Shown here piece by piece: positions 1 through 60,273 of a stretch of 64,000 bases of DNA (its first letter is position 1; each line of letters starts with the position of its first letter). Below the pieces are notes generated by a model, which was given only the letters and a program-made list of their open reading frames with translations, was not told where the DNA came from and did not search any database. The stretch comes from Squalus acanthias. Lineage: Eukaryota. The stretch lies in NCBI GenBank assembly GCA_030390025.1, contig JASTWF010000034.1, positions 5,766,001 to 5,830,000 of the forward strand, given 5' to 3'. The position numbers were made by a program, and so were the translations under genes.

Positions 1-330
1 CCTCCAAAAACCACAACCATCTTCCGTTGTGCCGGGTATGACTCGAGCCAGTGGAGAGTTTTCCCCCTGCTTTCCATTGCCACAATTTTACTGGGGCTCC
101 TTGATGCCGCACTCAGTCCAATGCTGCCTTGATGTCAAGGGCAGTCACTCTCTCCTCACCACTGAAATTCAGCACCTTTGTCCATGTTTGGACCAAGGCT
201 GTAATGAGGTCTGGAGCCGAGTGGTCCTGCCGGAACTCAAACTGGGCATCGGTGAGAAGATTATTAGTGAGTAAGTGCCACATAATAGCACTGTCGACGG
301 CACATTTAATCAATTTGCTCAGTTCACCAG
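1..330 (-). mobile_element. LINE (CR1/L2 group) reverse transcriptase fragment, decayed, truncated by window start
   Basis: Minus-strand ORF 113..313 reads QFEFRQDHSAPDLITALVQTW...VTALDIKAALD, matching non-LTR RT motifs QxGFR and LDIKAAFD. Paralogous to 43377-43715. Confidence 0.85.
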
Positions 331-394
331 TCTGTCTATGTCCTCCTGAAGCCTACTACTATCCCGCTCTGTGTGTATATAAAAGTCTATATCA

Positions 395-985
395 TTAATG
401 CATATCAAAAAGAGCAGTGGTCCGAAGAGCGACCCCTGGGGGATACCACTGTACACTTCCCTCCAGTCTGCACAACAACCGTTCACCACTACTCCCGGTT
501 TTCTGTCCCTTAGCCAATGTCAGATCCCCACTGCCACTGTCCCTTTGGTCCTATCAAGTCTATTCAATTGCACTTCATCAAATGCATTTTGAAAGTCCAT
601 ATACACAACATCAACCGCACTACCCTCATCAAACATTTCCGTTACTTCATCAAAGAATTTAATCAAGTTTGTCAGACACACTTTGCCGCTAATATATCCG
701 TGCTGGTTGTCATTTATTAATGCATGTTTTTTCCAAAGACAGATACTTTTCTCTGTGAATATGGCCTCTAGAAGTTTCCCCACCACTGACGTGAGGCTGA
801 CTGGCCTGCAGTTACAGGGTTTATCCCTCTCTCCTTTTTTAAGCAGGGTGTAACATTTGCAACCCTCCAGTCCTCTGGCTCCACTCCCATTTCCGAGGAT
901 GATTGAAATATTCTGGCCAGAGCCTGTGCTATTTCCACCATTCCTTCCCTCAGCAATCCTCATACTTCCCATCCGGAGCGGGTAA
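395..985 (-). mobile_element. CR1 LINE ORF2 (RT) fragment with internal deletion
   Basis: Minus ORF 520..972 has RPVSLTSVVGKLLE...NQHGYISGKVCLTNLIKFFDEVT...VDVVYMDFQNAFD, typical of CR1 RT. Frameshifted. Confidence 0.9.
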
Positions 986-1028
986 ATGTTCTACTTTACT
1001 GTGGTATAAAAAGTGTTGGATTGAAAGG

Positions 1029-1181
1029 GGTTAACTGAAGCTGTTTGTTCAGTGAGTGTAATTAATGTCCGTCTCCACGGGTTAACTGAAGCTGTTTGTT
1101 CAGTGACTATAATTAATGTCAGTCTCCACGGGTTAACTGAAGATGTTTGTTTAGTGACTGTAATTAATGTCTGCCTCCATG
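1029..1181 (+). repeat. 51-bp tandem repeat x3 upstream of GPCR-like exon A
   Basis: The unit GGGTTAACTGAAG(C/A)TGTTTGTT(C/T)AGTGA(C/G)T(G/A)TAATTAATGTCAGTCTCCAC has TTAACTGAAG at 1031, 1082 and 1133. The paralog carries one unit at ~44439-44490. Confidence 0.9.
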
Positions 1182-1353
1182 GACTCTAATTGTATTAGTG
1201 CAGGGTTTCCCTCTTCTATTAATAAGGGACTCCTTTCAATGTGTTATCCATAGTGTCAGTGAGAGCATCACCTCCGGCACTGACAGGGATCAGCGCGCTG
1301 CTCCACAGAGAGGGAGTCGGAATCTGAGAACAGTAGATTGGAATGTTACAACA

Positions 1354-1534
1354 ATGGATCAGAATCTGAGAGCAGTAGATTGGAATGTTACAACAATGGA
1401 CAGGAGTTTCAGCTCGCAGTTTGACTTTCTTTCAGCAAATTATGATTGGCTGCCATTAGACTGGCGGATAGAGTTGGTGCTTCAGATTATCCAATACTTT
1501 TACTATCCCCTCCTTGCTGCTGTTGGGGTTCCTG
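1354..1534 (+). CDS. Putative first coding exon of a class A GPCR (chondrichthyan GPR139/GPR142-like expansion), copy A; downstream exons not found
   Basis: ACAATGG start at 1354 (second in-frame ATG at 1396) gives MDQNLRAVDWNVTTMDRSFSSQFDFLSANYDWLPLDWRIELVLQIIQYFYYPLLAAVGVP. It has an NVT sequon, a hydrophobic TM1-like start and a consensus phase-1 donor CCTG|GTAAGT at 1534/1535. Frame and length are conserved in the paralog. Family assignment is from recalled motif similarity, not a search. Confidence 0.75.
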
Positions 1535-1689
1535 GTAAGTGTCTCTAACCAACTATTAACTCTGCAAACCTTTGCTAACTGTATTACTATTCTTCATTCT
1601 TTGCTGCTGTTGGTGTCGTTGGTAAGTCTCTTTCTCCAGAAATTGGGTCTATAAATCACGTTTCACTGTATTACTGTTTGTTATTTAAA

Positions 1690-2175
1690 TCTTGGGAAGA
1701 GCGAAGCCATTGTGTTCGGTCCTGGTCACAAACTCCATTCTCTATCTACCGATTCAGTCCCCCTCCCTGGTCAATGTCTGAGGCTGAACCAGGCTGTTTG
1801 CAACCTCTGCGATCTCTTTGTCCCTGAGCTGAGTTCCGATCTCATATCCTCTGAATCACCAGTCCTGCCGACTGCCACCCCCAAAATTTCACCCATCTCC
1901 GTTCCACCTCAGCCCTTCCACTGCATAAACCCTCATCCGTGCCTTTGCTAAATCCAGACTCGACTATTCCAATGCTCCCCTGGCCGGCCTCCCAGTAACA
2001 AGCCTCCATAAACTAGAGCTTATCCAAAACTCTGCTGCCCATATCCTAACACACATCATGTCCCGTTCACCCATCACCCCTGTGATCACTGACCAACATT
2101 GGCTGCCGATCCGGCAACAACTCGATTTAAATATTCTCCTCCTCATGTTCAAATCCCACCATGGCCTCACCCCTG
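1690..2175 (+). mobile_element. L2-clade LINE ORF2 C-terminal fragment
   Basis: Translates to SPITPVITDQHWLPIRQQLDLNILLLMFKSHHGLTP, resembling the L2 HITPVL..LHWLP..R..FKILLL.FK..HGLAP region. Confidence 0.8.
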
Positions 2176-2269
2176 CAATTATTCCCATTCCCTTGCTCTT
2201 TTCCCATTGTCCTGCAAATTGTTCCCCTTCAGGTATTTATCCAATTCCCCTTTTAAAGTTAATTTCCTT

Positions 2270-2362
2270 CCCTCTGTACCTCTCCCTGTCTTTCAGTCTC
2301 TATTTTTATTTCTCTCTTTCTCCCTTTCTCTCTCTCCCTCTTCTCTCTCTCTCTGTCTCTTG
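2270..2362 (+). repeat. CT-rich low-complexity tract
   Basis: Degenerate (CT)n run; paralog at ~45680-45772. Confidence 0.8.
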
Positions 2363-2364
2363 CT

Positions 2365-2730
2365 CATAGAATCATAGAACAGTACATCACAGACAGAGAC
2401 CATTCGGCCCATCGTGTCCATGCCGTCTCTTTGAAAGAGTTATTTATTCAGTCCTACTCTTTAATCAGAGCCCCATAAAAAATTCCCCTTCATCTAATTA
2501 CCCCATTCCCTTTCGAAAATTACTATTGAATCTGCTTCCACCACGTTCTCAGTCAGTGCATTCTAGATCACAACTCACTGCGTAAAGAAAATTCTCATCT
2601 CTCCTCTGGTTCTTTTGACAATTACTTTAAATGTGTTTCCTCTGGTTACCCACCATTCTGCCTCTGGAAACCGACTTACTTACTGTATCAAAACCCATTA
2701 CAATCTGGAACATCTATATTAAATCTCCCC
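2365..2730 (-). mobile_element. CR1 3' end, decayed
   Basis: Starts with CATAGAATCATAGAA (reverse complement of an 8-bp CR1-type 3' tail), followed by GACCATTCGGCCCATCG 3'UTR-like sequence seen at other CR1 ends in the window. Confidence 0.7.
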
Positions 2731-2731
2731 T

Positions 2732-4920
2732 AATGGAAAAGTACAAAGAAAGACCAGGTTTAAAAGTTTTCAATTGGGGAAAGGCCAAATTTACTAAGCT
2801 GAGATGTAATTTAGGAAAAGTGGACTGGAAACAGCTTCTTAATTGGAAATCAGTTCGGAGCTGTGGGAAGCATTCAACGAGGAGATAGTGAGGGCTCAGA
2901 GCAACTATATTCCCAAAAAGGTAAAGGATGGGACTTCCAAATCCAGAGTCCCCTAGTTGTCAAGGGGAATACAGGGTAGGAAACGGGAACAAAAAGGGAA
3001 GCTTTTGTCAGATACCGAGAGCTCAATACTACAGAAAGCCTAGAGGGGTATAGAAAGTGCAGGGGTGAAATTAAAAAGTAAATTAGGAAAGCAAAGAGAT
3101 GGCATGAAAAAATATTGGCAAGTAAAATCAAGGAAAACCCAAAGATGTTTTATACATACATCAAGAGCAAGAGGATATCTAAGGAAAGAGTCTGGCCTAT
3201 TATAGAACAAAAAGTTAATCTGTGTGTAGAGGCGGAAGACGTGGATATGGTTCTTAATAAATACTTTGTGTCTGTCTTCACAGAAGAGTGAGACGATGCA
3301 GACATTGTAGTTAAGGAGGAGGAGTGTGAAATATTAGATGAGACAAACATAGTGAGAGAGGAAACATTAAGGGGTTCAGCATCTTTCAAATTAGATAAAT
3401 CACGAGGCTCGGATGAAATGTATCCCAGGCTTTTAAGGGAGGAAATAGCGGAGGCTCAGACCATCATTTTCCAATCCTCTCTGGCTACAGGCATGATGAC
3501 AGAGGACTGGAGGACTGCTAACGTTGTACCATTGTTTAAAAAGGGAGAAAGGGATAGACCGAGTAATTACAGGGCAGTCAGTCTAACCTTGATTGTGGAA
3601 AAAAATTTTGAATGATTCTGAGTGGCAATATAAATCGGCATTTAGAAAGGCACAGATTAATCAAGGACAGTCAGCATGGTAATGTTAAGGGAAGGTCGTG
3701 TCTGACTAACTTGATTGAATTTTTTGAGGAGGTAATGAGAAGGGTCGATGAGGGGAGTGCATTTGATGTAGTCCACGTAGATATTAGTAAGGCCTTTGAC
3801 AAGGTCCCACATGACAGGTTGGTCATTGGATCCAAGGGAAAGTGGCAAGTTGGATCCAAAATTGGCTCAGTGGCAGGAAACAAAGGTCGTAATAGTCAAC
3901 GGGTGTTCTTTGTGACTGGAAGGTTGTTTCCAGTGGGGTTCCACAGGGCTCAGTACTAGGTCCCCTGCTATTTGTGGTATATTTCAATGATTTAGTCTTC
4001 AGTGTTGGGGCCATGATGAAGAAGTTTGCACATGATACAAAAATTGGCCGTGTGGTTGATAGTGAGGAAGACAGCTGTAGACTGCAGGAAGATATCAATG
4101 GACTGGTCCGGTGGGCAGAACAGTGGCAAATGGACTTCATTTCGGAGAAGTGTGAGGTAATGGATTGGTGGAGGTCTAAAAAAGAGGGCATACACAATAA
4201 ATGGTAGGATCCTGAGAATTGCAGAGGAACAGAGGGTCCTTGGAGTACATTTCCATATATCTATAAATATATCAGGACATATAGATAGGGTGGTTAAGAA
4301 GGCATGTGGGATACGTTGCTTTATTAGCCGAGGCATAGGATATAAAAGCAGGGAGGGTATGTTAGAACTGTATAAAACACTAGTTAGGCCATTGCTAGAA
4401 TACTGTGTAAAGTTCTGGTCACCACATTACAGGAACGATGTGATTGCACGAGAGACATTACAAAGGAGATTTACGTGGATGTTGCCAGGACTGGATAATT
4501 TTAGCTATGAGGAAAGATTGGATAGCCTGGGGTTGTTTACTTTGGAACAGAGGAGGCTGAGGGAAGATTTAATTGAGGTGTATAAAATTATGAGAGGCCT
4601 AGCTGGAGTCGATAGGGAGGAACTATTTGCCCTGACAGGGAGGTCAATAACCGGGGGTCATAGATTTAAATTAATTAGTAGAAGGATTAGAGGGGAGATG
4701 GGGAGAAATGTTTTCACCCAGAGGGGTGTGGGGGTCTGAAACTCACGGCCTGAAAGTGTGGTCGAGGCAGAAACCCTCATCACGTTTAAAACGTACATGG
4801 ATATGCACTTGAAATGCTGTAACCTACAGGGCTAAGGACCAAGAGCTAGAAATTGGGATTAGGGTGCAGAGCTCTATTTCGACCACGGATGACACAATGG
4901 GCCAAATGGCCTCCTCCCGT
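2732..4920 (+). mobile_element. 5'-truncated CR1 LINE (linker-RT-C-terminus), multiple frameshifts and stops
   Basis: ORF pieces: EDWRTANVVPLFKKGERDRPSNYRAVSLT, SQHGNVKGRSCLTNLIEFFEEV, FAHDTKIG (FADD-like), LYKTLVRPLLEYCVKFWSPHYR, YEERLDSLGLFTLEQRRLREDLIEVYKI. Confidence 0.93.
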
Positions 4921-4924
4921 ATTC

Positions 4925-5515
4925 TTGCCCATCCCTAGTTACCCGTGAGAAAATGGTGGGCCTTCAAACTGAGCCACTGCAGCCCCTGTGGTGAAGGTGC
5001 TCCCACAATACTGTTATGGAAGGAATTTCAGGCTTTTGACCGAGTGACGATGGAGGAACGGCGATATATTTGAAGGGTACGGAAGCATAGTGGTAATGTT
5101 GCTGGACTAGTAAACCAGATGACTGGACAAATGATCCAGAGTTCAAGTCCCACCAGCTGGGGAATTTAAATTCAATTAATTAAACAAATCTGGAATGAAA
5201 AGCTAATATCAGGAATGGTGACCATGAAACTACGGGATTTTTATAAAAACCTATCTGGGAAGGAAATCTGCCGTCCTTACCCAGTCTGGCTGAAATGTGA
5301 CTCCAGACCCAGATCAATGTGATTAACTTTTAACTGCCCTCTGAAATGCCCGAGCAAGCCATTTAGTTCTTTAAGGCGGCTCACCACCACCTTCTCAAGG
5401 GCAATTAGGAATGGACAATAAATGTGGCCTTGCCAGCGACGCCCACATACCATGAATGAATAAAAAATTGTTCCAGCCTGGATGGTGAGTGACATGAAGT
5501 TGGAACTTGGTTGTG
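4925..5515 (-). mobile_element. 3' region of a LINE (same family as 42025-43715), interrupted by a SINE
   Basis: TGCCCATCCCTAGTT...GCTCCCAC...TTTTGACC...CGATATATTT matches 42076-42210, and the match resumes after the SINE (CCTGGATGGTGAGTGAC vs CAGGATGGTGTGTGAC at ~42218). Confidence 0.7.
5075..5467 (+). mobile_element. tRNA-derived SINE with LF-SINE-like core and LINE-derived tail
   Basis: A-box-like AGCATAGTGG and B-box-like GAGTTCAAGTCCC. Core GGAAGGAAATCTGCCGTCCTTACCCAGTCTGGC...GTGACTCCAGACCC resembles the LF-SINE core as recalled. The tail ends ATGAATGAATAAAAAA. Confidence 0.8.
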
Positions 5516-6367: not shown

Positions 6368-9113
6368 CATTCACACAGGCTTTTTAGAGAGACAGGACCA
6401 GTCACACAGGCTTTTTAAAGAAACAGGACCAGTCACACAGGCTTTTTAAAGAGACAGGACCAGTCACACAGGCTTTCTAAAGAGACAGGACCAGACACAC
6501 AGGCTTTTTAAAGAGACAGGGCCAGTCACACAGGCATTCTAAAGAGACAGGACCACTCATGCAGGCTTTTTAAAGATACAGGACCAGTCACACAGGCTTT
6601 TTAAAGAGACAGGACGGGTCACACAGGCTTTTTAAAGAGACAGCACCAGTCACACAGGCTTTTTAAAGAGACAGGACTAGTCACCCAGGCTTTTGAAGAG
6701 GCAGGACAAGTCACGCAGGCTTTTTAGAGAGACAGGACCAGTCACACAGGCTTTTTAAAGAGACAGGACCAGTCACATCGGCTTTTTGAAGAGACAGGAC
6801 CAGTCACACAGGCTTTTTGAAGAGACAGGACCAGTCACACAGGCTTTTTAAAGAGACAGGTCCAGTCACACAGGCTTTTGAAGAGACAGGAGCAGTCACA
6901 CAGGCTTTTTGAACAGACAGGATGAGTCAAAGAGGCTTTTTGAAGAGACAGGTCCAGTCACACAGGCGTTTTAAAGAGACAGGACCAGTCACACAGGCTT
7001 TTTAAAGAGACAGGTCCAGTCACAACGGCTTTTTAAAGAGACAGGATCAGCCACACAGGCTTTTTGAAGAGACAGGACCAGTCACACAGGCTTTTTGAAG
7101 AGACAAGACCAGTCACACAGGATTTCTAAAGAGACATGACCAGTCACACAGGCTTTTTAAAGAGACAGGACCAGTCACACAGGCTTTTTAAAGAAACAGG
7201 ACCAGTCACGCAGGCTTTCTAAAGAGACAGGAGCAGTCACAACGGCTTTTTAGAGTGACAGGGCCAGTCACACAGGCTTTTTAAAGAGACAGGACCAGAC
7301 ACACAGGCTTTTTAAAGAGACAGGACCAGTCACACAGGCGTTTTGAAGAGACAGGACCAGTCACACAGGCTTTTTGAAGAGACAGGACCAGTCACACAGG
7401 ATTTCTAGAGACATGACCAGTCACACAGGCTTTTTAAAGAGACAGGACTAGTCACACAGGCTTTTTAAAGAAACAGGACCAGTCACGCAGGCTTTCTAAA
7501 GTGACAGGAGCAGTCACAACGGCTTTTTAGAGAGACAGGGCCAGTCACACAGGCTTTTTAAAGAGACAGGACCAGACACACAGGCTTTTTAAAGAGACAG
7601 GACCAGTCACACAGGCTTTTGAAAGAGACAGGACCAGTCACACAGGCTTTTTAAAGAGACAGGACCAGTCACAAAGGCTTTGTAAAGAGACAAGTCCAGT
7701 CGCACAGGCTTTTTAAAGAGACCTGATCAACCACACAGGCTTTTTAAAGAGATCGCACCAGTCACACAGGCTTTTTAGAGAGACAGGACCACTGACACTG
7801 GCTTTTTAAAGAGACAGGACCAGTCACACAGGCTATTTAAAGAGACAGGTCCAGTCACGCAGGGTTTTTAAATAGACAGGACCAGTCACGCAGGCTTTTT
7901 AAAGAGACAGGATTTTACACACAGGCTTTTTAAAGAGACAGGACCAGTCACAGAGGCTTTTTGAAGAGACCGGACCCCTCACACAGGCTTTTTAAAGAGA
8001 CAGGACCCCTCGCACAGGCTTTTTAAAGAGACGAGACCAGTCACACAGGCTTTTTAAAGAGACAGGACCAGTCACGCAGGCTTTTTAAAGAGACAGGACC
8101 AGTCCCACAGGCTTTTTTGAAGAGACAGGACCAGTCACACTGGCAATCTAAATTTACATAACCACACACACAGGCTTTTTGAAGAGACAGGACCAGTCAC
8201 ACATTCTTTTGAAAGAGATAGGACCAGTCACACAGGCTTTCTAAAGAGACAGGACCAGTCACAATGGCTTTTTAGAGAGAAAGGACCAGTCACACAGGCT
8301 TTCTAAAGAGACAGAAACATTCACACAGGCTTTCAAAAGAGACAGGACCAGTCACACAGGCTTTTTAAAGAGACAAGACCATTCACACAGGCTTTCTAAA
8401 GAGACAGAACCATTCACACAGGCTTTCAAAAGAGACAGGACCAGTCACACAGGCTTTTTAAAGAGACAGGACCATTCACACAGGCTTTCTAAAGAGACAG
8501 GACGAGTCACACAGGCTTTTTAAAGAGACAGGTCCAGTCACACAGGCTTTTTGAAGAGACAGGACCAGTCACACAGGCGTTTGTAGAGACAGGACCAGTC
8601 ACCCAGGCTTGTTAAAGAGACAGGTCCAGTCAAGCAGTCTTTTTAAAGAGACAGGACCACTCACACTGGCTTTTTAAAGAGTCACACAGGCTTTCTTATT
8701 CGGCAGAACCAGTCGCACGGGCTTTTTAAAGAGACAGGACGAGTCACACGGCCTTTTTAAAGAGACAGGACCACTCACACAGGCTTTTTGAAGAGACAGG
8801 ACCAGTCACACAGGCTTTTTGAAGAGACAGGATGAGTTACACATGCTTTTTAAAGAGACATGTCCAGTCACACAGGCTTTTTAAAGAGACGAGTCACACA
8901 GGCTTTTAAAAAGGCAGGACCAGTCACACAGGTTTTTAGAAAGAGACAGGACCAGTCACACAGGCGTTTGCAGAGACAGGACCAGTCACCCAGGCTTGTT
9001 AAAGAGACAGGTCCAGTCGCAGGCTTTTTAAAGAGACAGGACCAGTCACACAGGCTTTTTAACGCGACAGCACCAGTCACACTGGCTTTTTAGAGAGACA
9101 GGGCCAGTCACAC
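6368..9113 (+). repeat. 31-bp minisatellite, roughly 85-90 units, runs into the gap
   Basis: Consensus CACACAGGCTTTTTAAAGAGACAGGACCAGT repeated head to tail with scattered substitutions and no unique spacers. Confidence 0.97.
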
Positions 9114-9613
9114 NNNNNNNNNNNNNNNNNNNNNNNNNNNNNNNNNNNNNNNNNNNNNNNNNNNNNNNNNNNNNNNNNNNNNNNNNNNNNNNNNNNNNNN
9201 NNNNNNNNNNNNNNNNNNNNNNNNNNNNNNNNNNNNNNNNNNNNNNNNNNNNNNNNNNNNNNNNNNNNNNNNNNNNNNNNNNNNNNNNNNNNNNNNNNNN
9301 NNNNNNNNNNNNNNNNNNNNNNNNNNNNNNNNNNNNNNNNNNNNNNNNNNNNNNNNNNNNNNNNNNNNNNNNNNNNNNNNNNNNNNNNNNNNNNNNNNNN
9401 NNNNNNNNNNNNNNNNNNNNNNNNNNNNNNNNNNNNNNNNNNNNNNNNNNNNNNNNNNNNNNNNNNNNNNNNNNNNNNNNNNNNNNNNNNNNNNNNNNNN
9501 NNNNNNNNNNNNNNNNNNNNNNNNNNNNNNNNNNNNNNNNNNNNNNNNNNNNNNNNNNNNNNNNNNNNNNNNNNNNNNNNNNNNNNNNNNNNNNNNNNNN
9601 NNNNNNNNNNNNN
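9114..9613. other. Assembly gap (500 N)
   Basis: Run of N of round length between two different tandem arrays; probably a scaffolding placeholder of unknown true size. Confidence 0.98.
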
Positions 9614-39990: not shown

Positions 39991-40007
39991 AAATAAGCAA
40001 AACACAC

Positions 40008-40268
40008 CAACAACTTATATTTATAAAGCGCCTTTAACGTAGTAGAACGTCCCAAGACGCTTCACAGGAGTGCTATCAAACAACATTTGACATCGAGCCA
40101 CATAAGGAGATATTTGGGCAGATAACCAAAAGCTTGGTCAAAGAGGTAATTTTTAAGGAGCGTCTTGATGGAGGAGAGAGAGGCAGAGAGGTTTACGGAC
40201 AGAATTCCAGAGCTTAGGGCCCAGGCAGCTAAAGGCATGGCCACCAATGGTGGAGTGATTAAAATCAG
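40008..40268 (-). mobile_element. L2 LINE 3' end
   Basis: The reverse strand reads GTGAAGCGTCTTGGGACGTTCTACTACGTTAAAGGCGCTTTATAAATATAAGTTGTTG, an L2-type tail. The upstream part translates ...IKTLLKNYLFDQAF, resembling the L2 ORF2 terminus. Confidence 0.8.
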
Positions 40269-40269
40269 G

Positions 40270-40500
40270 GATACATTGAGAGGGACATTGAGAGAGACAT
40301 TGACTGAAACATAGAGCGAGACATTGGGAGGGTCATTGAGCGGGCCATAGAGAGAGTCAGACAGACACAAAGAGAGAAATAGAAACAAAGAGAGTGGGCA
40401 GATTGAGAGATAGAAATAGAGAGACAGAAAGTCTGGGGGAGAGCCACAGACAGCCAGAGAGAGACAGACAGGCTGAGAGAGGCAGAGGGAAGAGAAAGTC
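40270..40500 (+). repeat. GA-rich low-complexity region including degenerate 12-bp GACATTGAGAGA units
   Basis: GATACATTGAGAGGGACATTGAGAGAGACATTGAC... followed by degenerate (GA)n. Confidence 0.7.
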
Positions 40501-40519
40501 AGGGCTAGATATTGAGAGT

Positions 40520-41988
40520 TAGAAAATAGGAACATATGAAATAGGAGCAGGAGTAGGCCATTTGGCCCATCGATCCTGCTCCGCCGTTCAATAAGGTCAT
40601 GGCTGATCTTCTATCTCAACTCCACTGTCCTGAACTATCCCCATAACCCTTGATTCCCTTAATATTCAAAAATCTTTCAATCTCTGTTTTGAATATACTC
40701 AACGACTGAACATCCACAGCCCTCTGGGGGAGAGAATTGCAAAGATTCCCCACCCTCCGAGTGAAGAATTTTCTCCTCATCTCGGACCTAACTGGCCGAC
40801 GTCTTTTGCTGAGACTGTGACCCCTTGTTCTAGACTCCCGAGCCAGGGGAAACATCCTCCCTGCATCTACCCTGTTAAGCCCTCTAAGAATTTTATATAT
40901 TTCCATGAGATTACCTTTCATTCTTCTAAATTCTAGGGAACATAGGCCTAGTCTACTCCACCTGTTCTCATAGGAAAATCCCCCCATCCCAGGAACCAGT
41001 CTGGTGAACCTTCGTTGCACTCCCTCTTTGGCAATTATATCCTTCCTTAGGTAAGGAGACCACAACTGTACACAGTACTCCTGGTGTGGTCTCACCAGGG
41101 CCTTATATAATTGCAGTAAGACGTCTTTACTCTTATGCTCAAATCCTCTTATAATAAAGGCCAACATACCATTTGCTTTCCTAATTATTTGCTGTACCTG
41201 CATGTTACCTTTCAGTGATTCATGTACAAGGACACCCAGGTCCCTCTGAACACCAACATTTCCCAATCTCTCAACATTTAAAAAATACCTTGCTTTACTA
41301 TTTTTCCTAACTGCACATTTCTCCACTTATATTCCATTTGCCATGTTCTTGCCCATTCACTTAGCCTGTCTATATCCCCTTGAAGCCTCCTTGCATCCTC
41401 CTCACAACTTACATTTCCACCCAGCTTTGTATCATCAGCAAACTTGGAGATATTGCATTTGGTCCCCTCATCCAAATCATTGATATATATCGTAAATAGC
41501 TGTGGCCCAAACACTGATTATTGCAGTACCCCACTAGTTACAGCCTGCCAAACCGAAAATGACTCGTTTATTGCTATTCTCTGTTTTCTGTCCGTTAACC
41601 AATCCTCAACCCATGCTAGAATATTACCCCCAATCCCATTTTGTTTAATAACCTCTTGTGCGGCCCCTTATCGTATGTCTTCTGAAAATCCAAATCCACC
41701 ACATCCACTGTCTCCCCCTTATCTGTTCTGCTAGTTACAACCTCAAAACACTGTAACAAATTTGTCAAACACGATTTCCCTTTCATAAATCCGTGTTGAC
41801 TCTGCCCAATCCTATTATCATTTTCTAAGTGCCCTGTTACTACGTCCTTAATATATTTTAGCATTTTCCCTACTACTGATGGCAGGAAAACTGGTCTGTA
41901 GTTCCCCGTTTTCTCTCTCCCTCCTTTCTTAAATATTGGGGTTACATTTGCTACATTCCAATCCGCGGCAAACGTTCTAAAATCTATG
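40520..41988 (-). mobile_element. 5'-truncated CR1 LINE (RT to 3' UTR)
   Basis: Minus ORFs SQHGFMKGKSCLTNLLQCFE, ISKFADDTKLGG, LYKALVRPHQEYCVQLWSPYLRKD. The 3' UTR/tail lies at 40520-40615. Confidence 0.93.
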
Positions 41989-42024
41989 CAATTTATGGAA
42001 TTTCATCTGCCATCTATTTTGTCC

Positions 42025-43715
42025 TTTTTTATTCATTCATGGGATGTGGTCATCGCTGGCACGCCGAGCATTTATTGCCCATCCCTAGTTGCACTTGAGA
42101 AGGTGATGGTGAACCGCTACAGTCGGAGATGGAAAGGCGCTCCCACTGTGCTGTTATGGAGGGAGTTGCAGGATTTTGACCCAGCGACAATGAAGGAATG
42201 GTGATATACTTCCAAGTCAGGATGGTGTGTGACTAGGAGGGGAAGTTACAGGTGATGGTGTTCCCATGCTCCTGCTGCCCTTGTCCTTCTAGGTGGTAGA
42301 GGCTGCATGTTTGGGAGGTACTGCCGAAGAAACCTTGGCAAGTTGCTGCAGTGCATCTTGTAGATGGTACAAACTGTAGCCACGGTGCGCCGGTGGTGGA
42401 GGGAGTGAATGTTTCAGAACATAACATAAGTCATAGGAGCAGGAGCAGGCCTCCTCTGTTCAAAGGAAAACAAACCCAGCTTATCCCAGTTAATATTGGG
42501 GTAGTTCAAATCTCCTACTACTACTGCCCTATAGTTTTTGCACTTCCCAGAAATGTGTCGACATATTTGCTCTTCTATCTCCCTCTCACTGTTTGGGGGT
42601 CGAGAGTACATTCCCAGCAGTGTGGTCGCCCCTTTTTTGTTTTTCCATTCGACCCATATGGCCTCGTTTGATGATCCCTCCAACATATCATCTCTCCTCA
42701 CAGCTGTAATAGTTTCTTTAATCAATACCGCGACCCCCTCCCTTTTTACCACCCTCTCTACCCCTTTATGGTGATGGATGGGCTACCAATCAAGTGAGCT
42801 GCTTTGTCCTGGATGATGTCGAGCTTCTTGTGTTGTTGGAGCTGCACTCATCCAGACAAGTGTAGAGTATTCCATCACACTCCTTACTTGTGCCTTGTAG
42901 ATGGTGGAAAGGATTTGGGGAGTCAGGAGGTGAGACGCTCAAAGCAGAATACCCAGCCTTGACCTGCTCTTTTAGCCACAGTATTTATGTGGCTGGTCCA
43001 GTTAAGGTTCTGGTCAATGGAACCCCACAGGATACTGATGGTGACGGATTTGGCGATGGTAATCCCATTGAAGGTCAAGGGGATGCGGCTCTTGTTGGAG
43101 ATTGTCATTGCCTGGCACTTGTTTGGTGTGATTATTACTTGCCACTTATCAACCCAAGGCTGAATGTCATCCAGGTCTTGCTGCATGTGGGCATGGACTG
43201 CTTCATTATCTGAGGAGTTGTGAATAGAACTGAATACTGAGCAATCATCAGCGAACATCCCCACTTCTGACCATAGGATGGAGGGAAGGTCATTGATGAA
43301 ATAGCTGAAGATGGATGGGCCGAGGACACTGCCCTGATGTACTGCTGCAGCGATGTCCTGGGGCTGTGATGATTGACCTCCAAAAACCACAACCATCTTC
43401 CGTTGTGCCGGGTATGACTTGAGCTGGTGGAGAGTTTTCCCCCTGCTTTCCATTGACACAATTTTACTGGGGCTCCTTGATGCCGCACTCAGTCCAATGC
43501 TGCCTTGATGTCAAGGGCAGTCACTCTCACCTCACCTCTGGAATTCAGCTCCTTTGTCCATGTTTGGACCAAGGCTGTAATGAGGTCTGGAGCCGAGTGG
43601 TCCTGCCGGAACTCAAACTGGCCATCGGTGAGAAGATTATTATAGAGTAAGTGCCACATAATAGCTCTGTCGACCGCACCTTTCATCACTTTGCTCATTT
43701 CACCAGCCTGTCGAT
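42025..43715 (-). mobile_element. LINE (CR1/L2 group) RT plus 3' end, carrying a nested CR1-derived fragment
   Basis: Minus ORFs with HQGSVLGPSIFSYFINDLP...MFADDC and LDIKAALD. The 3' tail reads ATGAATGAATAAAAAA on the minus strand at 42025-42040. Confidence 0.88.
42415..42768 (-). mobile_element. Composite CR1 fragment (endonuclease piece joined to C-terminal and tail pieces) inside the LINE
   Basis: Minus ORF 42414..42752 goes from EN motifs (GVAVLIKE, AIWVE, YSRPPN, VVGDLNYPNINW) straight to DKLGLFSFEQRR and then CCTGCTCCTGCTCCTATGACTTATG, a CR1-like tail. Confidence 0.75.
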
Positions 43716-43814
43716 GTCCTCCTGAAGCCTACCTTATCCCACTATCTGTGTGTGTGTATATATGTATATGAATATATATATATATGTCTATATATATGTC
43801 TATATCATTGATAT

Positions 43815-44395
43815 ATATCAAAAAGAGCACTGGTCCGAATAGCGACATCTGGGGGACACCACTGTACACTTCCCTCCAGTCTGAACAACAACCGTTCACC
43901 ACTACTCTCGGTTTTCTGTCCCTTAGCCAGTGTCAGATCCCCACTGCCACTGTCCCTTTGGTCCTAACAAGTCTATTCAATTGTACTTCATCAAATGCAT
44001 TTTGAATGTCCATGTACACAACATCAAACGCACTATGCTCATCAACCCTCTCCGTTACTTCATCAAAGAACTTAATCAAGTTTGTCAGACACACTTTGCC
44101 GTTACATATCCATGCTGGTTGTCATTTATTAATCCATGTTTTTTCCAAAGACAGATACTTTTCTCTGTGAATATGGCCTCTAGAGTTTTCCCACCACTGA
44201 CGTTAGGCTGACTGGCCTGCAGTTACAGGGTTTATCCCTCTCTCCTTTTTTAAACAGGGTGTAACATTTGCAACCCTCCAGTCCTCTGGCACCACTCCCA
44301 TATCCGAGGAGGATTGAAATATTCTGGCCACAGCCTGCGCTATTTCCACCATTCCTTCCCTCAGCAATCCTCATATTTCCCATCCGGACCGGGTA
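43815..44395 (-). mobile_element. CR1 RT fragment (paralog of 395-985)
   Basis: LFKKGERDKPCNCRPVSLTSVVGKL, with the same internal deletion as copy A. Confidence 0.88.
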
Positions 44396-44662
44396 AATGT
44401 TCTACTTTATTGTGGTACAAAAAGTGTTGGATTGAAAGGGGTTAACTGAAGATGTTTGTTTAGTGACTGTAATTAATGTCAGTCTCCATGGACTCTAATT
44501 GTATCAGTGCAGGGTTTCCCTCTTCTATTAATAAGGGATTCCTTTCAATGTGTTATCCGTAGTGTCAGTGAGAGCATCACCTCCGGCACTGACAGGGATC
44601 AGCGCGCTGCTCCACAGAGAGGGAGTCGGAATCTGAGAACAGTAGATTGGAATGTTACAACA

Positions 44663-44843
44663 ATGGATCAGAATCTGACAACAGTAGATTGGAATGTTAC
44701 AACAATGGGCAGGAGTTTCAGCTCGGATATTCACGATCTTTCAGCATTTTATATTTGGCTACCATTAAACGTTCGGATAAAGTTCGCACTTCAGATTATT
44801 CAATACATTTACTATCCACTCCTTGCTGCTGTTGGTGTTCCTG
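44663..44843 (+). CDS. Putative first coding exon of a GPR139/GPR142-like class A GPCR, copy B; downstream exons not found
   Basis: ATG at 44663 (second at 44705) gives MDQNLTTVDWNVTTMGRSFSSDIHDLSAFYIWLPLNVRIKFALQIIQYIYYPLLAAVGVP. It has NLT and NVT sequons and a phase-1 donor CCTG|GTAAGT at 44843/44844. Same 181-bp length as copy A, with no stops or indels. Confidence 0.75.
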
Positions 44844-45097
44844 GTAAGTCTCTCTGTCCAGCTATTCTGTTAACCATGTTTTACTGTATTACTGTTCTTG
44901 TCATTTACTCTCCCCTCCTTGTTTTCGATTGTTGTTCCTGGTCAGTCTCTCTATCCAGCTGTTAACCCTGCCAACCTTTGCTAACTGTATGACTATTCTT
45001 CATTCTTTGCTGCTGTTGGTGTCCCTGGTAAGTCTCTCTATATCCAGAAATTAGATCTGTAAATCACGTTTCACTGTATTACTGTTTGTCATTTAAA

Positions 45098-45583
45098 TCT
45101 TGGGAAGAGCGAAGCCATTGTCTTCGGTCCTCGTCACAAACTCCATTCTCTATCTACCGATTCAGTCCCCCTCCCTGGTCAATGTCTGAGGCTGAACCAG
45201 GCTGTTTGCAACCTCTGCGATCTCTTTGTCCCTGAGCTGAGTTCCGAACTCATATCTTCTCAATCACCAGTCCTGCCGACTACCGCCCCCAAAATTTCAC
45301 CCATCTCCGCTCCACCTCAGCCCTTCCGCTGCATAAACCCTCATCCGTGCCTTTGTTATATCCAGACTCGACTATTCCAATACTCTCCTGGCCGGCTTCC
45401 CAGTAACAAGCCTCCATAAACTAGAGCTCATCCAAAACTCTGCTGCCCATATCCTAACACACATCATGTCCCGTTCACCCATCACCCCTGTGATCACTGA
45501 CCAACATTGGCTGCCGATCCGGCAACAACTCGATTTAACTATTCTTCTCCTCATGTTCAAATCCCACCATGGCCTCACCCCTC
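45098..45583 (+). mobile_element. L2 ORF2 C-terminal fragment (paralog of 1690-2175)
   Basis: SPITPVITDQHWLPIRQQLDLTILLLMFKSHHGLTP. Confidence 0.8.
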
Positions 45584-45774
45584 AAATTAGTCCCATTCCC
45601 TTGCTCTTTTCCCATAGTCCTGCGAATTGTACCCCTTCAGGTATTTATACAATTCCCCTTTTAAGGTTAATTTATTTCCCTCTGTGCCTCTCCCTGTCTT
45701 TCAGTCTGTATTTTTATTTCTCTCTTTCTCCCTTTCTCTCTCTCCCCCTCTTCTCTCTCTCTCTGTCTCTTGCT

Positions 45775-46140
45775 CATAGAATTATAGAACGGTACATCAC
45801 ATACAGAGACCATTCGGCCCATCGTGTCCGTGCCGTCTCTTTGAAAGAGTTATTTATTCAGTCCTACTCTTTAATCAGAGCCCCATAAAAAAATTCCCCT
45901 TCATCTAATTACCCCATTCCCTTTCGAAATTTACTATTGAATCTGCTTCCACCACGTTCTCACTCAGTGCATTCTAGATCACATCTCACTGCGTAAAGAA
46001 CAATATCATCTCTCCTCTGGTTCTTTTGCCAATTACTTCAAATTTGTTTCCTCTGATTACTCACCATTCTGCCTCTGGAAACAGACTTACTTAATCTATC
46101 AAAACCTATTACAATCTGGAATATCTATACTAAATCTCCC
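45775..46140 (-). mobile_element. CR1 3' end (paralog of 2365-2730)
   Basis: CATAGAATTATAGAA...GACCATTCGGCCCATCG. Confidence 0.7.
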
Positions 46141-46141
46141 C

Positions 46142-48180
46142 TGATGGAAAAGGACAAAGAAAGACCAGGTTTAAAAATTTCAATTGGGGAAAGGCCAAAT
46201 TTACTCAGCTGAGATGTGATTTAGGAAAAGTGGACTGGAAACAGCTTCTTAATTGGAAATCAGTGCAGAGCTGTGGGAAGCATTCAACGAGGAGATAGTG
46301 AGGGCTCAGAGCAAATATATTCCCAAAAAGATAAAGGATGGGACTTCCAAATCTAGAGCCCCCTGGATGTCAAGGGGAATACTGTGTTGGATAAGGGGAA
46401 AAAAGGGAAGCTTCTGTCAGATACCGAGAGCTCAATACTACAGAAAGCCGAGAGGGGTATAGAAAGTGCAGGGGTGAAATTAAAAAGTAAATTAGGAAAG
46501 CAAAGAGATGGCATCAAAAAATATTGGCAAGTAAAATCAAGGAAAACCCAAAGATGTTTTATGCATACATCAAGAGCAAGAGGATAACTAAGGAAAGAGT
46601 CTGGCCTATTATAGAACAAACAGTGAATCTGTGTGTAGAGGCGGAAGACGTGGATATAGTTCTTAATAAATACTTTGTGTCTTTATTCACAGAAGAGTGA
46701 GATGATGCAGACATTGTAGTTAAGGAGAAGGAGTGTGAAATATTAGATGAGACAAACATAGTGAGAGAGGAAACATTAAGGTGTTTAGCATCTTTGAAAG
46801 TAGATAAATCACGAGGCTCGGATGAAATGTATCCCAGGCTTTTAAGGGAGGAAATAGCGGAGGCTCAGACCATCATTTTCCAATCCTCTCTGGCTACAGG
46901 CGAAATGCAAGATTAATCAAGGACAGTCAGCATGGTAATGTTAAGGGAATGTCGTGTCTGACTAAATGGATTGAATTTTTTGAGGAGGTAATGAGGAGGG
47001 TCGATGAGGGGAGTGCATTTGATGTAGTCCACGTAGGTATTAGTAAGGCCTTTGACAAGGTCCCAAATGACAGGTTGGTCATTGGATCCAAGGGAAAGTG
47101 GCAAGTTGGATCCAAAATTGGCTCAGTGGCAGGAAGCAAAGTTCGTAATGGTCAACGGGTGTTTTTGTGACTGGAAGGTTGTTTCCAGTGGGGTTCCACA
47201 GGGCTCAGTACTAGGTCCCCTGCTATTTGTGGTATATATTAATGATTTAGACTTTAGTGTTGGGGCCATGATGAAGAAGTTTCCACATGATACAAAAAGT
47301 GGCCGTGTGGTTGATAGTGATGAAGAAAGCTGCAGACTGCAAGAAGATATCAATGGACTGGTCCGGTGGGCAGAACAGTGGCAAATGGACTTCATTTCGG
47401 AGAAGTGTGAGGTAATGCATTGGTGGCGGGCTAACAAAAAGGGAATACACAATAAATGGTAGGATACTGAGAGGTGCAGTGGAACAGAAGGACCTTGGAG
47501 TACATTTCCACATATCTCTAAAACTATCAGCACATGTAGATAGGGTGGTTAAAAAGGCATGTGGGATACATTGCTTTATTAGTCGAAGCATAGAATATAA
47601 AAACAGGGAGTTTATGCTAGAACTGTATAAAACACCAATTAGACCACAGCTAGAATACTGCGTACAATTTTGGTCAAAATATTACAGGAAAGATGTGATT
47701 GCATTTGAAACATTATAGAGGAGATTTACGTGGATGTTGCCAAGACTGGGGAATAGTTTGGGGTTCTTTACTTTGGAACAGAGGAGGCTGAGGGGAGATT
47801 TAATTGAGGTGTATAAAATTATGAGGGGCCTAGATAGAGTCGATAGCAAGCACCGATTTCACCTGGCAGAGAGGTCAATAACCAAGGAGCATAGATTTAA
47901 AGTAATTGGTAGAAGGATTAGACGGGAGATGAGAATTTCTTTCACCCAGAGGGCTGTGCGGGTCTGAAATTCAAGGCCTGAAAGGGTGGTAGAGGCAGAA
48001 ACCCTCATCACGTTTAAAACGTACATGGATATGCACTTGAAGTGCCATCACCTACAGGGCTACGGACCAAGAGCTGGAAAGTGGGATTAAGCTGGAAAGC
48101 TCTATTTCGACCGGCGCAGATGCAATGGGCCAAATGGCCTCCTTCTGTGCCGTAAATTTCGACGATTCTACAATTCTGTG
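46142..48180 (+). mobile_element. 5'-truncated CR1 (paralog of 2732-4920) retaining its 3' tail
   Basis: SGVPQGSVLGPLLFVVYINDLD, RPQLEYCVQFWS and LEQRRLRGDLIEVYKI; ends in TTTCGACGATTCTACAATTCTGTGAT, a degenerate 8-bp tail. Confidence 0.9.
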
Positions 48181-58786: not shown

Positions 58787-59574
58787 CAGCACTGAGGGAG
58801 TGCTGCATTGTTGGAGGGGCAGTACTGAGGGAGTGCATCTCTGTCAGAGGGGCAGTACTGAGGGAGCACTGCACTGTCAGAGGGGCAGTACTGAGGGAGC
58901 GCATCACTGTCAGAGGGGCAGTACTGAGGGAGTGCATCACTGTCAGAGGGACAGTACTGAGGGAGCGCATCACTGTCAGAGGGGCAGTACTGAGGGAGCG
59001 CATCACTGTCAGAGGGGCAGTACTGAGGGAGCGCCGCACTGTCAGAGGGGCTGTACTGAGGGAGCGCATCACTGTCAGAGGGGCAATACTGAGGGAGCAC
59101 ATCTCTGTCAGAGGGTCAGTACTGAGGGAGCGCATCACTGTCAGAGTGGCAGTACTGAGGGAGCACTGCACTGTCAGAGGGGCAGTACTGAGGGAGCACT
59201 GCCCTGTCAGAGGGGCCGTACTGAGGGAGCACTGCACTGTTAGTGGGGCAGTACTGAGGGAGCACTGCACTGTCAGAGGGGCAGTACTGAGGGAGCACTG
59301 CACTGTCAGAGGGGCAGTACTGAGGGAGCACTGCACTGTCAGTGGGGCAGTACTGAGGGAGCACTGCACTGTCAGAGGGGCAGTACTGAGGGAGCACTGC
59401 ACTGTCAGAGGGGCAGTACTGAGGGAGCGCTGCACTGTCAGAGGGGCAGTACTAAGGGAGCGCATCACTGTCAGAGGGGCAGTACTGAGGGAGCACTGCA
59501 CTGTCAGAGGGGCAGTACTGAGGGAGCACTGCACTGTCAGAGGGGCAGTACTGAGGGAGCACTGCACTGTCAGA
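58787..59574 (+). repeat. 33-bp minisatellite (~24 units) derived from a SINE body segment
   Basis: Unit GCAGTACTGAGGGAGCACTGCACTGTCAGAGGG. The first unit CAGCACTGAGGGAGTGCTGCATTGTTGGAGG nearly matches CAGTACTGAGGGAGTGCTGCACTGTTGGAGG in the SINE at ~62362-62392. Confidence 0.95.
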
Positions 59575-60045: not shown

Positions 60046-60273
60046 TATGCGAGAATTTAATGTTTCCAGAGTGTTTCCTGGAGTATTGAGGTGCATACAG
60101 CGTATTTATCTCATTGGTTAATATTTTAAGTGTTTTTCCTTTTATCCCTTCGTTTTAATCCTCTGCTCCTTTTAATTATTCTTCCCCTCGGTCAAACACG
60201 ATGACATGTTTGTCTGGGTAAGGTCACTCTTCTTCTTCTTCTTCCATTTTCAGGCAAAAGAGAAATGAACTGA

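Follow-up and report, generated by a model that had tools for sequence, protein, structure and literature searches.

Background

In the genome of the shark Squalus acanthias two copies of a short coding exon differ far more within one segment of 63 bp than elsewhere, and the question raised by this locus is what has driven that segment apart. Both copies lie in a window of 64,000 nucleotides (GenBank assembly GCA_030390025.1, contig JASTWF010000034.1, positions 5,766,001 to 5,830,000 of the forward strand), which is the whole stretch of DNA analysed here and to which all coordinates below refer. An earlier reading of the letters alone (the original prediction) took the two copies for recently duplicated first exons of a receptor resembling GPR139, a G-protein-coupled receptor (GPCR), with diversifying selection or patchwork gene conversion acting on an extracellular N-terminus. 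In this work we have analysed the exon, its relatives in the genome and the predicted protein. The segment 1417-1479 is probably the juxtamembrane extracellular segment of a GPR139-like receptor, subject to diversifying selection on the surface that would meet the ligand and to some exchange between paralogues. The parts of the exon are as follows.

1312-1395, + strand: two 42-bp in-frame tandem units of 14 residues each (xxxNLRTVDWNVTT), each with an NxT sequon
1354-1534, + strand: coding part of exon 1, copy 1; 60 codons plus 1 base (phase 1), counted from the ATG chosen in the original prediction
1414-1500, + strand: family-wide hypervariable stretch, codons 21-49, slightly wider than the flagged patch
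1417-1479, + strand: flagged patch, codons 22-42
1501-1533, + strand: conserved outer half of transmembrane helix 1 (TM1), YYPLLAAVGVP, codons 50-60, aligning to TM1 of human GPR139
1535-1540, + strand: splice donor GTAAGT, found in 52 of the 55 copies examined
44663-44843, + strand: exon 1, copy 2, with the equivalent of the patch at 44726-44788

Divergence between the two exons

Aligned with each other, the two exons differ at 26 of 181 bp with no indel and no stop codon (155/181 identical, 85.6%), and 19 of the 26 differences are concentrated in the 63 bp of 1417-1479. Fifteen codons change a residue and four are purely synonymous, some codons being altered at two or three bases (e.g. codon 37, TGG/GTT). 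The 156 bp preceding the ATG differ at two positions only, 1230 and 1250. All of these counts had been obtained by hand in the original prediction and were reproduced, and both peptides quoted there are correct. When the whole duplicated stretch was aligned with MAFFT (331 mismatches in 4657 aligned columns, 7.1%), the patch came out as the most diverged 63-bp window save for the ragged end of homology at 4883-4945, with 15 mismatches in the runner-up. Against the background of 7.1% the binomial probability of at least 19 differences in 63 bp is 2.1e-8, or about 1e-4 after allowing for about 4600 windows, so the clustering of differences in 1417-1479 is above chance.

The peak is family-wide and not special to the window pair. 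Among 31 copies nucleotide diversity per 21-bp bin is 0.156-0.225 over 1417-1479 and 0.137 at 1480-1500, against 0.02-0.09 in the bins upstream and 0.02-0.14 in most intron bins. Two statements about the pair itself have to be revised. The duplication, put at 4.9 kb, really spans about 8.3 kb, from 3.4 kb before the window start to 4915 (-3383 to 4915 against 40000-48143, in blocks of 95.7, 93.4, 93.3, 91.8, 94.3 and 88.7% identity). The copies are also not the sisters that a recent duplication of one into the other would give: a first look at the genome yielded 381 candidates for the copy 1 exon, and the 39 others scored over their full length are 87-92% identical to it, hence nearer to copy 1 than copy 2 is.

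Identity of the exon and structure of the gene

The 60-residue translation of copy 1 matches the N-termini of shark proteins annotated as 'probable GPR139' at 43-70% identity (14 of 18 candidates at E ≤1e-2, that is ≤0.01; tblastn and phmmer). Exon 1 encodes the N-terminus and the first half of TM1 of a class A GPCR of this type. The annotated shark proteins consist of a variable number of 14-residue MDRNLRTVDWNVTT-like repeats, each with an NxT sequon, a variable stretch, the sequence YYPLLAAVGVP and the seven-helix remainder. Copy 1 correspondingly contains one 14-residue repeat of the N-glycosylation type, a linker, the variable patch and the first half of TM1; its open reading frame (ORF) is intact and its 3′ end reads CCTG, followed by the donor GTAAGT, in phase 1. 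Exon 1 alone is too short and gave no meaningful match in Pfam. No exon 2 was found inside the window by tblastn with three full-length shark proteins or among ORFs of at least 90 residues. The gene map was drawn on the window extended by 50 kb upstream and 70 kb downstream, and it adds the following exons, all outside the window and given in window coordinates.

69163-70059, + strand: exon 2 of copy 2, intact, 24.3 kb downstream of copy 2 exon 1
76533-77429, - strand: exon 2 of the twin gene
102266-102445, - strand: exon 1 of the twin gene ('TW')
from 133412, + strand: partial exon 2

Exon 2 of copy 2 (L043:5163-6062) is an open frame of 300 codons that matches the Pfam family 7tm_1 (PF00001) with 75.9 bits against a cut-off of 30.5 (E 4.6e-21); P0003, a homologue from another shark, scores 71.6 bits against the same family. 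The acceptor reads ttcccttccacacag followed by TTAAC on the + strand, and together with the last G of exon 1 it gives GTT AAC, Val-Asn, as in the annotated proteins. The GPR139-like first exon of the original prediction is borne out by the matching shark N-termini and by a phase that fits an exon 2 of the 7tm_1 type. The exon boundary falls between GVP and VN, two residues ahead of the Asn of TM1, and human GPR139 is presumably split by an intron at the matching place inside TM1.

The N-terminal repeat varies in number. Across the 55 copies of exon 1 the 42-bp unit is absent from one copy and is present once in 34, twice in 13, three times in three, four times in two and six times in two copies; the 14-residue repeat reaches about nine units in one annotated shark protein. 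Since the count varies, the length of the N-terminus and the number of predicted glycans differ between paralogues and the true start codon is ambiguous. Most of the 42-bp units across the 55 copies begin with ATG and carry an NxT sequon; the first unit of copy 1 lacks the ATG.

Size and composition of the family

A 31-nt marker spanning the end of exon 1 and the donor, with one mismatch allowed, has 240 matches in the genome, and a 31-nt marker for exon 2 has 296; the reversed control markers have none. The gene family thus comprises about 250-300 near-identical two-exon units, in keeping with the receptor repertoire, as opposed to a single-copy GPR139, that had been proposed from the window alone. 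Where an exon-1 and an exon-2 match could be paired within one contig and strand, the intron between them measures about 17-43 kb. Few copies are damaged: 112 of the 113 exon-2 matches scored have no stop, and 53 of the 55 exon-1 copies are intact, the other two having a 1-bp deletion that breaks the frame. The two frameshifted copies are L056 (G000:C625) and L065 (G000:C3286). Three of the 55 donors depart from GTAAGT, two being GTAAAT (L007, L016) and one GTCAGT (L031).

Each of the 29 other loci fetched has the flanks of copy 1 as well, over about 3 kb at 81-96% identity and with the LINE (long interspersed nuclear element) fragments included, which shows that the repeated object is a multi-kilobase unit. 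Neutral divergence among units is about 5-10%, a figure that would imply young units and a very recent burst. In protein databases 2106 related proteins were found at E ≤1e-20, and the best 120 of these all come from sharks.

Two other descriptions of the repeat were considered and rejected. An exon captured by a transposon is ruled out by a repeated unit that is the whole gene, exon 2 included, with about one exon 1 per exon 2. Variable first exons of the protocadherin kind are ruled out as the rule of the family in the same way, the whole gene being repeated and the exon-1 and exon-2 counts being about equal (240/296).

Selection across the family

For the analysis of selection 55 copies of exon 1 were collected with their flanks, namely the 30 best matches to the copy 1 exon (copy 1 being L001), copy 2, its twin and 23 copies from patch searches; for 20 of the 55 the flanks were limited to 300 bp upstream and 500 bp of intron. 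The analyses used the 53 intact copies, out of at least 240 in the genome. Their mean pairwise difference is 0.200 in patch codons 21-49, a value biased downward because copies were picked by similarity, as against 0.097 in 500 bp of intron, 0.049 in 300 bp upstream and 0.057 in the rest of the exon. Divergence of the patch was predicted to exceed that of the flanks derived from transposable elements, and it does (0.20 vs 0.078).

Counted by the Nei-Gojobori method, the proportion of replacement differences (pN) in codons 21-49 is 0.224 (95% confidence interval 0.160-0.292) and that of synonymous differences (pS) 0.109, with a codon bootstrap P(pN≤pS) of 0.0002. In the narrower flagged patch, codons 22-42, pN is 0.250 vs a pS of 0.116, and the ratio of replacement to synonymous rates (omega) is 2.0-3.5. 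Patch pN is 2.3 times the intron diversity, whereas synonymous divergence in the patch is close to that of the intron. Only replacements are thus in excess, which makes old alleles, a mutational hotspot or plain drift less likely. Omega was estimated with a one-ratio codon likelihood of our own (GY94-type, F3x4, branch lengths scaled from an IQ-TREE tree) in place of codeml or HyPhy. For codons 21-49 it is 2.88 on the tree of exon and flanks (likelihood ratio test, LRT, against omega = 1, p 7.7e-8), 3.51 on the tree of flanks only (p 6.5e-12) and 2.10 on the tree of the exon only (p 5.6e-5). The diversifying selection that was read from one pair of exons therefore reappears in 53 copies, with an omega of 2.1-3.5, significantly above 1.

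The contrast with the adjoining codons is sharp. In TM1 codons 50-60 pN is 0.003 vs a pS of 0.166 and omega is about 0 (LRT p ~1e-34), values that point to strong purifying selection. Within the patch the variable positions are 21-25, 28-29, 32-34, 37, 40, 44 and 48, and the scaffold residues between them (L26, S27, Y30, L35, R38, Q47) are 90-100% conserved. The scaffold seen originally in the pair is accordingly kept by the family (L26, S27, Y30, L35, R38 and YYPLLAAVGVP). In-frame indels are absent from the patch in every copy, whereas they abound in the flanks as indels of any kind. Codons 1-20 have an omega of 3.4-4.9, on very few changes.

Exon 2, compared in 14 sequences, repeats the pattern. 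Its transmembrane and intracellular parts have a pN of 0.01-0.03, and pN exceeds pS in three segments, which correspond to the extracellular loops (ECLs): residues ~48-58, at the edge of ECL1, are variable with pN above pS; residues 121-150 (ECL2) have a pN of 0.18 and a pS of 0.045; and residues 231-255 (ECL3) have a pN of 0.176 and a pS of 0.088. The youngest pair of genes is formed by copy 2 and its inverted twin, with flanks diverged by 1.3-2.0%. Their first exons differ by 11 replacement codons and one synonymous codon, and their second exons by seven codons, four replacement and three synonymous.

At the 5′ end divergence is low: pS in codons 1-20 (1354-1413) is 0.027 and diversity over the 300 bp upstream (1054-1353) is 0.049, both well below the 0.097 of the intron. 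This suggests either constraint on the promoter or 5′ end or local homogenisation.

Topology of the predicted protein

The family belongs to the class A (rhodopsin-type) GPCRs of PF00001. N62, D145 and R146 are invariant in 76 family proteins; in a wider alignment of 96 sequences R146 still shows no variation, and conservation of N62 and D145 is at least 90%. We take N62 to be position 1.50 of TM1 and D145/R146 to be the D-R-x (DRY) motif at the end of TM3.

A structure was predicted with AlphaFold2 for the homologue P0003, whose exon 1 also has 60 residues, from the 96-sequence alignment; it stands in for the spliced protein of the window itself. The model has a mean predicted local distance difference test score (pLDDT) of 86.3 and a predicted template modelling score (pTM) of 0.84, with a pLDDT of 90-94 over residues 21-50; an earlier model from a shallow alignment of 76 sequences (pLDDT 59.9) was discarded. 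The 96-sequence model shows the class A fold, seven long helices and a C-terminal helix (helix 8). Residues 19-28 form a short helix, residues 29-34 a loop and residues 35-70 a long TM1. The three variable segments of exon 2 map to ECL1, to the hairpin of ECL2 and to ECL3 with the tips of TM6 and TM7, so that in the model all four variable segments lie outside the membrane. Over codons 20-50 variability has a period of 90-100 degrees, the spacing expected for a single helical face (permutation p 0.0036). A Foldseek search of the PDB listed 50 matches, and all 50 are class A receptors with probability 1.00. The top ranks are taken by receptors of the peptide and chemokine type (GPR15, CCK1R, CXCR3); GPR139 (7vug) comes tenth and has the highest identity (22%) of the top 50.

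Weighing the explanations

The mechanism that we favour would work as follows. The segment 1417-1479 is modelled as a short helix, a loop and the extracellular extension of TM1 just outside the membrane, a position in which the patch would touch the ligand and from which, together with the other variable parts, it would face the binding site. In the N-terminal patch and the three ECLs replacements have built up 2-4 times faster than synonymous or intron changes, and the intracellular parts and the core within the membrane have stayed nearly frozen. Diversifying selection on the ligand-facing surface would make each paralogue a differently tuned receptor, presumably a chemosensory one. Positive selection would act in episodes after duplication, and exchange between paralogues would probably reshuffle the variants of the patch too.

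Several observations weigh against this reading. The distance between patches reaches a plateau of ~0.20 once the flanks are more than 3% diverged, and pairs with a flank divergence of 1.6-2.4% are bimodal in the patch, with either 0-3 or 9-17 differences in 87; a patch that changed in episodes, or that was exchanged between paralogues, would explain plateau and bimodality better than a fast clock running steadily. Some hint of recombination comes from a Sawyer-type permutation test (sum of squared condensed fragments, SSCF; p 0.003) and from four-gamete incompatibility at 59 of 231 site pairs in the patch vs 8 of 78 upstream, both tests resting on 125 ungapped polymorphic columns of which 100 are exonic and few are in the flanks, and the SSCF test being sensitive to clustered hypervariable sites. 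Recombination can inflate omega estimated on a tree, and the estimate is further limited by a one-ratio model of our own applied to 53 copies chosen by similarity. The youngest pair is lopsided, with exon 1 heavily changed and the variable loops of exon 2 hardly at all. Among 11 matching sequencing runs from four studies (word shares ≤0.40) there is no RNA dataset; contigs of four runs over 700-2200 cover the LINE parts and the intron and cross the exon-intron boundary at 1534 (1499-1617, 1499-1711), so that they behave like genomic DNA of related animals and are uninformative on transcription. Finally, copy 1 lacks a second exon and may be no functional gene.

This last point concerns copy 1 rather than the family. 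Its chances are evenly balanced between being used at all and being a dead 5′ fragment, the orphan first exon of a partial duplication; in the latter case the differences would mean nothing for copy 1 itself, and the reading of the family would stand beside it unharmed. The layout around the two units is as follows.

1-4915, + strand: copy 1 gene-unit fragment with upstream region, exon 1 and the first 3.4 kb of the intron
6371-9113, unstranded: 31-bp satellite, 89 copies by Tandem Repeats Finder (TRF), ahead of the copy 2 unit
9114-9613: assembly gap (run of N) directly after the 31-bp satellite
9614-39956, unstranded: 52-bp satellite (TRF), ~590 units, ~30 kb, directly upstream of the copy 2 unit
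40000-64000, + strand: 5′ part of the complete copy 2 unit with upstream region, exon 1 and an intron containing LINEs and 33-bp and 51-bp satellites

Copy 1 is a truncated gene unit without an exon 2 of its own in the assembly. Its homology to complete units ends at 4915, and it is followed by ~1.4 kb of other sequence, the 31-bp satellite, the 500-N gap, the 30-kb 52-bp satellite and then copy 2, so that the satellites which normally precede a unit come directly after it; copy 2 and the twin continue for a further ~22 kb to their exon 2. No exon 2 was found between copy 1 and copy 2 or within 50 kb upstream of the window, and the only one downstream on the same strand is 67.6 kb away, past copy 2, the satellites and the assembly gap. 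The nearly equal marker counts also make an exon 2 shared by several first exons no rule of the family. Against a dead fragment, the ORF, the ATG and the consensus donor of copy 1 are all intact, it departs from the family consensus at only one of 34 conserved positions (mean 0.74 per copy), and the 224 bp directly upstream of its exon have only five differences from copy 2. These figures comprise too few events to judge constraint, the neutral hits expected since the duplication being too few to tell. The true size of the gap at 9114-9613 is uncertain, and if copy 1 is transcribed, splicing to the exon 2 at 69163 is possible.

Among explanations of the peak itself, the strongest competitor has paralogues exchanging sequence by patchwork gene conversion or recombination, with no selection for novelty: short tracts replace the patch and the flanks keep the history of duplication. 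As a full account we hold it to be unlikely. It would explain why the distance between patches does not follow that between flanks and is bimodal for close pairs, it agrees with the SSCF result and with the larger share of four-gamete incompatibilities in the patch, and it suits the copy 2/twin pair, in which exon 1 is the only part so changed. Copy 2 moreover has the rare residues T6 and D25 in common with the paralogue L002, and the two are identical over codons 1-20, although they are far apart in the rest of the patch. Conversion, however, only moves variants that already exist, and it gives no account of the two-fold excess of replacements or of a patch pN at 2.3 times the intron level. 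Donors are also missing among the copies scored: the best match to the copy 1 patch is 89% identical, and the copy 2 patch is close only to its own small clade, 98% to L055 on another contig and 94% to the frameshifted L056, then 88% to the twin with the matching flanks and ≤84% to all else. The relatives of the twin patch are graded (99, 94, 93, 92, 90%), as stepwise change would give. The SSCF evidence, for its part, comes from the few, mostly exonic columns described above.

Relaxed constraint, in the form of an unimportant drifting N-terminus or of many pseudogenes, is very improbable. Poor conservation is common in class A N-termini and two of the 55 exon-1 copies are frameshifted, but drift predicts an omega of about 1 and divergence at the level of the intron, whereas omega is 2.1-3.5 and pN is 0.224 vs 0.097 in the intron; the conserved scaffold within the patch and the lack of any in-frame indel there, in the midst of flanks full of them, also speak against drift. 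A local mutational hotspot (targeted hypermutation or error-prone repair) is less probable still: the many codons with two or three base differences and the sharp bounds of the peak would suit it, but synonymous change should then rise too, and the patch pS of 0.109-0.116 is not above the intron (0.097) or the TM1 codons (0.166), and the helical recurrence of the variable positions is a pattern of the protein and not of the DNA.

Comparison with known receptor systems

By sequence the closest characterised relative is GPR139, which like GPR142 is an orphan class A GPCR; PMC5103216 describes it as a brain receptor with L-Trp and L-Phe as proposed agonists. Human GPR139 is the only solved structure matched at E ≤1e-5 (7vug, E 1.7e-12; 7vuh, 7vui, 7vuj, 9m42), the TM1 motif YY-LL--G-P-N and the end of TM3 align with the shark family, and the NCBI pipeline labels the shark proteins 'probable GPR139'. 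Identity is only ~22%, however, and the shark family exists in hundreds of copies per genome instead of one, so the shark proteins are not orthologues of GPR139 and the name is an automatic best-hit label. The aligned part begins at residue 40, and both the hypervariable residues 21-39 and the 14-residue repeats of the shark proteins lie outside it.

Like the OR, TAAR, V1R/ORA and T2R families, the shark family is large, lineage-specific, clustered, of class A and poor in pseudogenes, with conserved transmembrane and intracellular parts and positive selection on the extracellular parts and the rim of the pocket. Those families typically have an intronless coding exon, whereas in the shark gene an intron of 17-43 kb interrupts the coding sequence within TM1; the shark units are also far more alike (~5-10% neutral divergence). 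Among immune GPCRs, positive selection on extracellular domains is well known, for example for the CC chemokine receptors (PMC2880985). There too replacements concentrate in the N-terminus and the ECLs, and the fold of the P0003 model is nearest to receptors of the peptide and chemokine type; the chemokine receptors, however, are some ten to twenty genes compared between species, while the shark signal lies between hundreds of paralogues in one genome.

Protocadherin and UGT1A loci have clustered variable first exons that are spliced to shared constant exons. The present locus resembles them in that a single exon 2 is preceded on the + strand by two first exons with separate upstream regions; it differs in that exon counts are about equal genome-wide and matched pairs have one exon 1 per exon 2. 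The arrangement of two first exons looks like an accident of partial duplication and not like the design of the family.

The phenomenon is of a known kind and the family appears to be undescribed in print: no paper on a GPR139-like family of sharks or elasmobranchs was found among open-access papers and preprints, one article retrieved having GPR139 in its references and nowhere else, and a description elsewhere is possible. The whole extracellular face carries the signature of selection for diversity, most strongly in the N-terminal patch, and this signature is a mark of repertoires that recognise many ligands, chemosensory or immune. For all their fame as chemical sensors, cartilaginous fishes have a small described repertoire, dominated by V2R; the abstract of PMC6368271 reports such a repertoire for the catshark, with five to eight genes each in OR, ORA and TAAR, and does not mention the present family. 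We put forward, as a tentative suggestion that may well prove wrong, that the GPR139-like family is a major undescribed chemosensory repertoire of sharks and rays, in which each of several hundred receptors is tuned by four hypervariable extracellular segments, the N-terminal helix being the most variable and a glycosylated repeat of variable length lying on top. If true, this would explain why so few classical odorant receptors are enough for animals famed for smell and taste. The ligands might, by analogy, be amino acids or small peptides, and the variable positions of the patch listed above (21-25, 28-29, 32-34, 37, 40, 44, 48), together with ECL1-3, would be a guide for ligand screens.

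Genomic surroundings

The complete copy 2 unit (40008-72000) is 98.3-98.7% identical to its inverted twin (107151-74592 in window coordinates) and 94-95% identical to a third gene in the shared parts of the intron. Copy 2 and the next gene form a tail-to-tail inverted repeat with arms of ~32 kb and a 500-N gap at its centre (73266-73765; loci L043-L047). Either a real palindrome or the head-to-head scaffolding of two haplotypes could give this arrangement. The 52-bp satellite lies directly upstream of all three units seen, namely copy 2, copy 1 (about -8500 to -3400) and the twin (L050, L047-L049; 107000-123000). The 31-bp satellite precedes the 52-bp satellite for copy 2 and the twin, and the order of satellite, gap and satellite is the same in both. 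Both times the assembly gap (9114-9613 and 110573-111072) coincides exactly with the point where the two satellites meet.

Remains of LINEs are found at four places within the gene units.

523-990, - strand: LINE reverse-transcriptase fragment in the shared upstream flank (Pfam RVT_1, E 3.9e-8)
3612-4204, + strand: LINE reverse-transcriptase fragments in the shared intron flank (Pfam RVT_1, E 8.6e-6 and 7.6e-8)
52468-53211, + strand: LINE remains
57546-58268, - strand: LINE remains

The domains recognised among them are an endonuclease (Exo_endo_phos), reverse-transcriptase fragments and an ORF with a domain of the GDSL-lipase/esterase type.

Smaller repeats adjoin the exon on both sides. A 51-bp tandem repeat at 1028-1179, ~200 bp upstream of the exon, has three units in copy 1 and one in copy 2, leaving a gap of 102 bp in the alignment. 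After the real donor, at 1585-1690 and 44867-44960, there are degenerate tandem copies of the last ~35 bp of exon 1 with a GGTAAGT-like donor, one in copy 1 and two in copy 2 (an insertion of 97 bp in the pair alignment), and these may act as decoy donors. Farther into the copy 2 intron the 33-bp and 51-bp satellites at 58787-59574 and 60270-61948 give rise to long spurious ORFs on both strands, and the same satellites recur in the introns of neighbouring family members.

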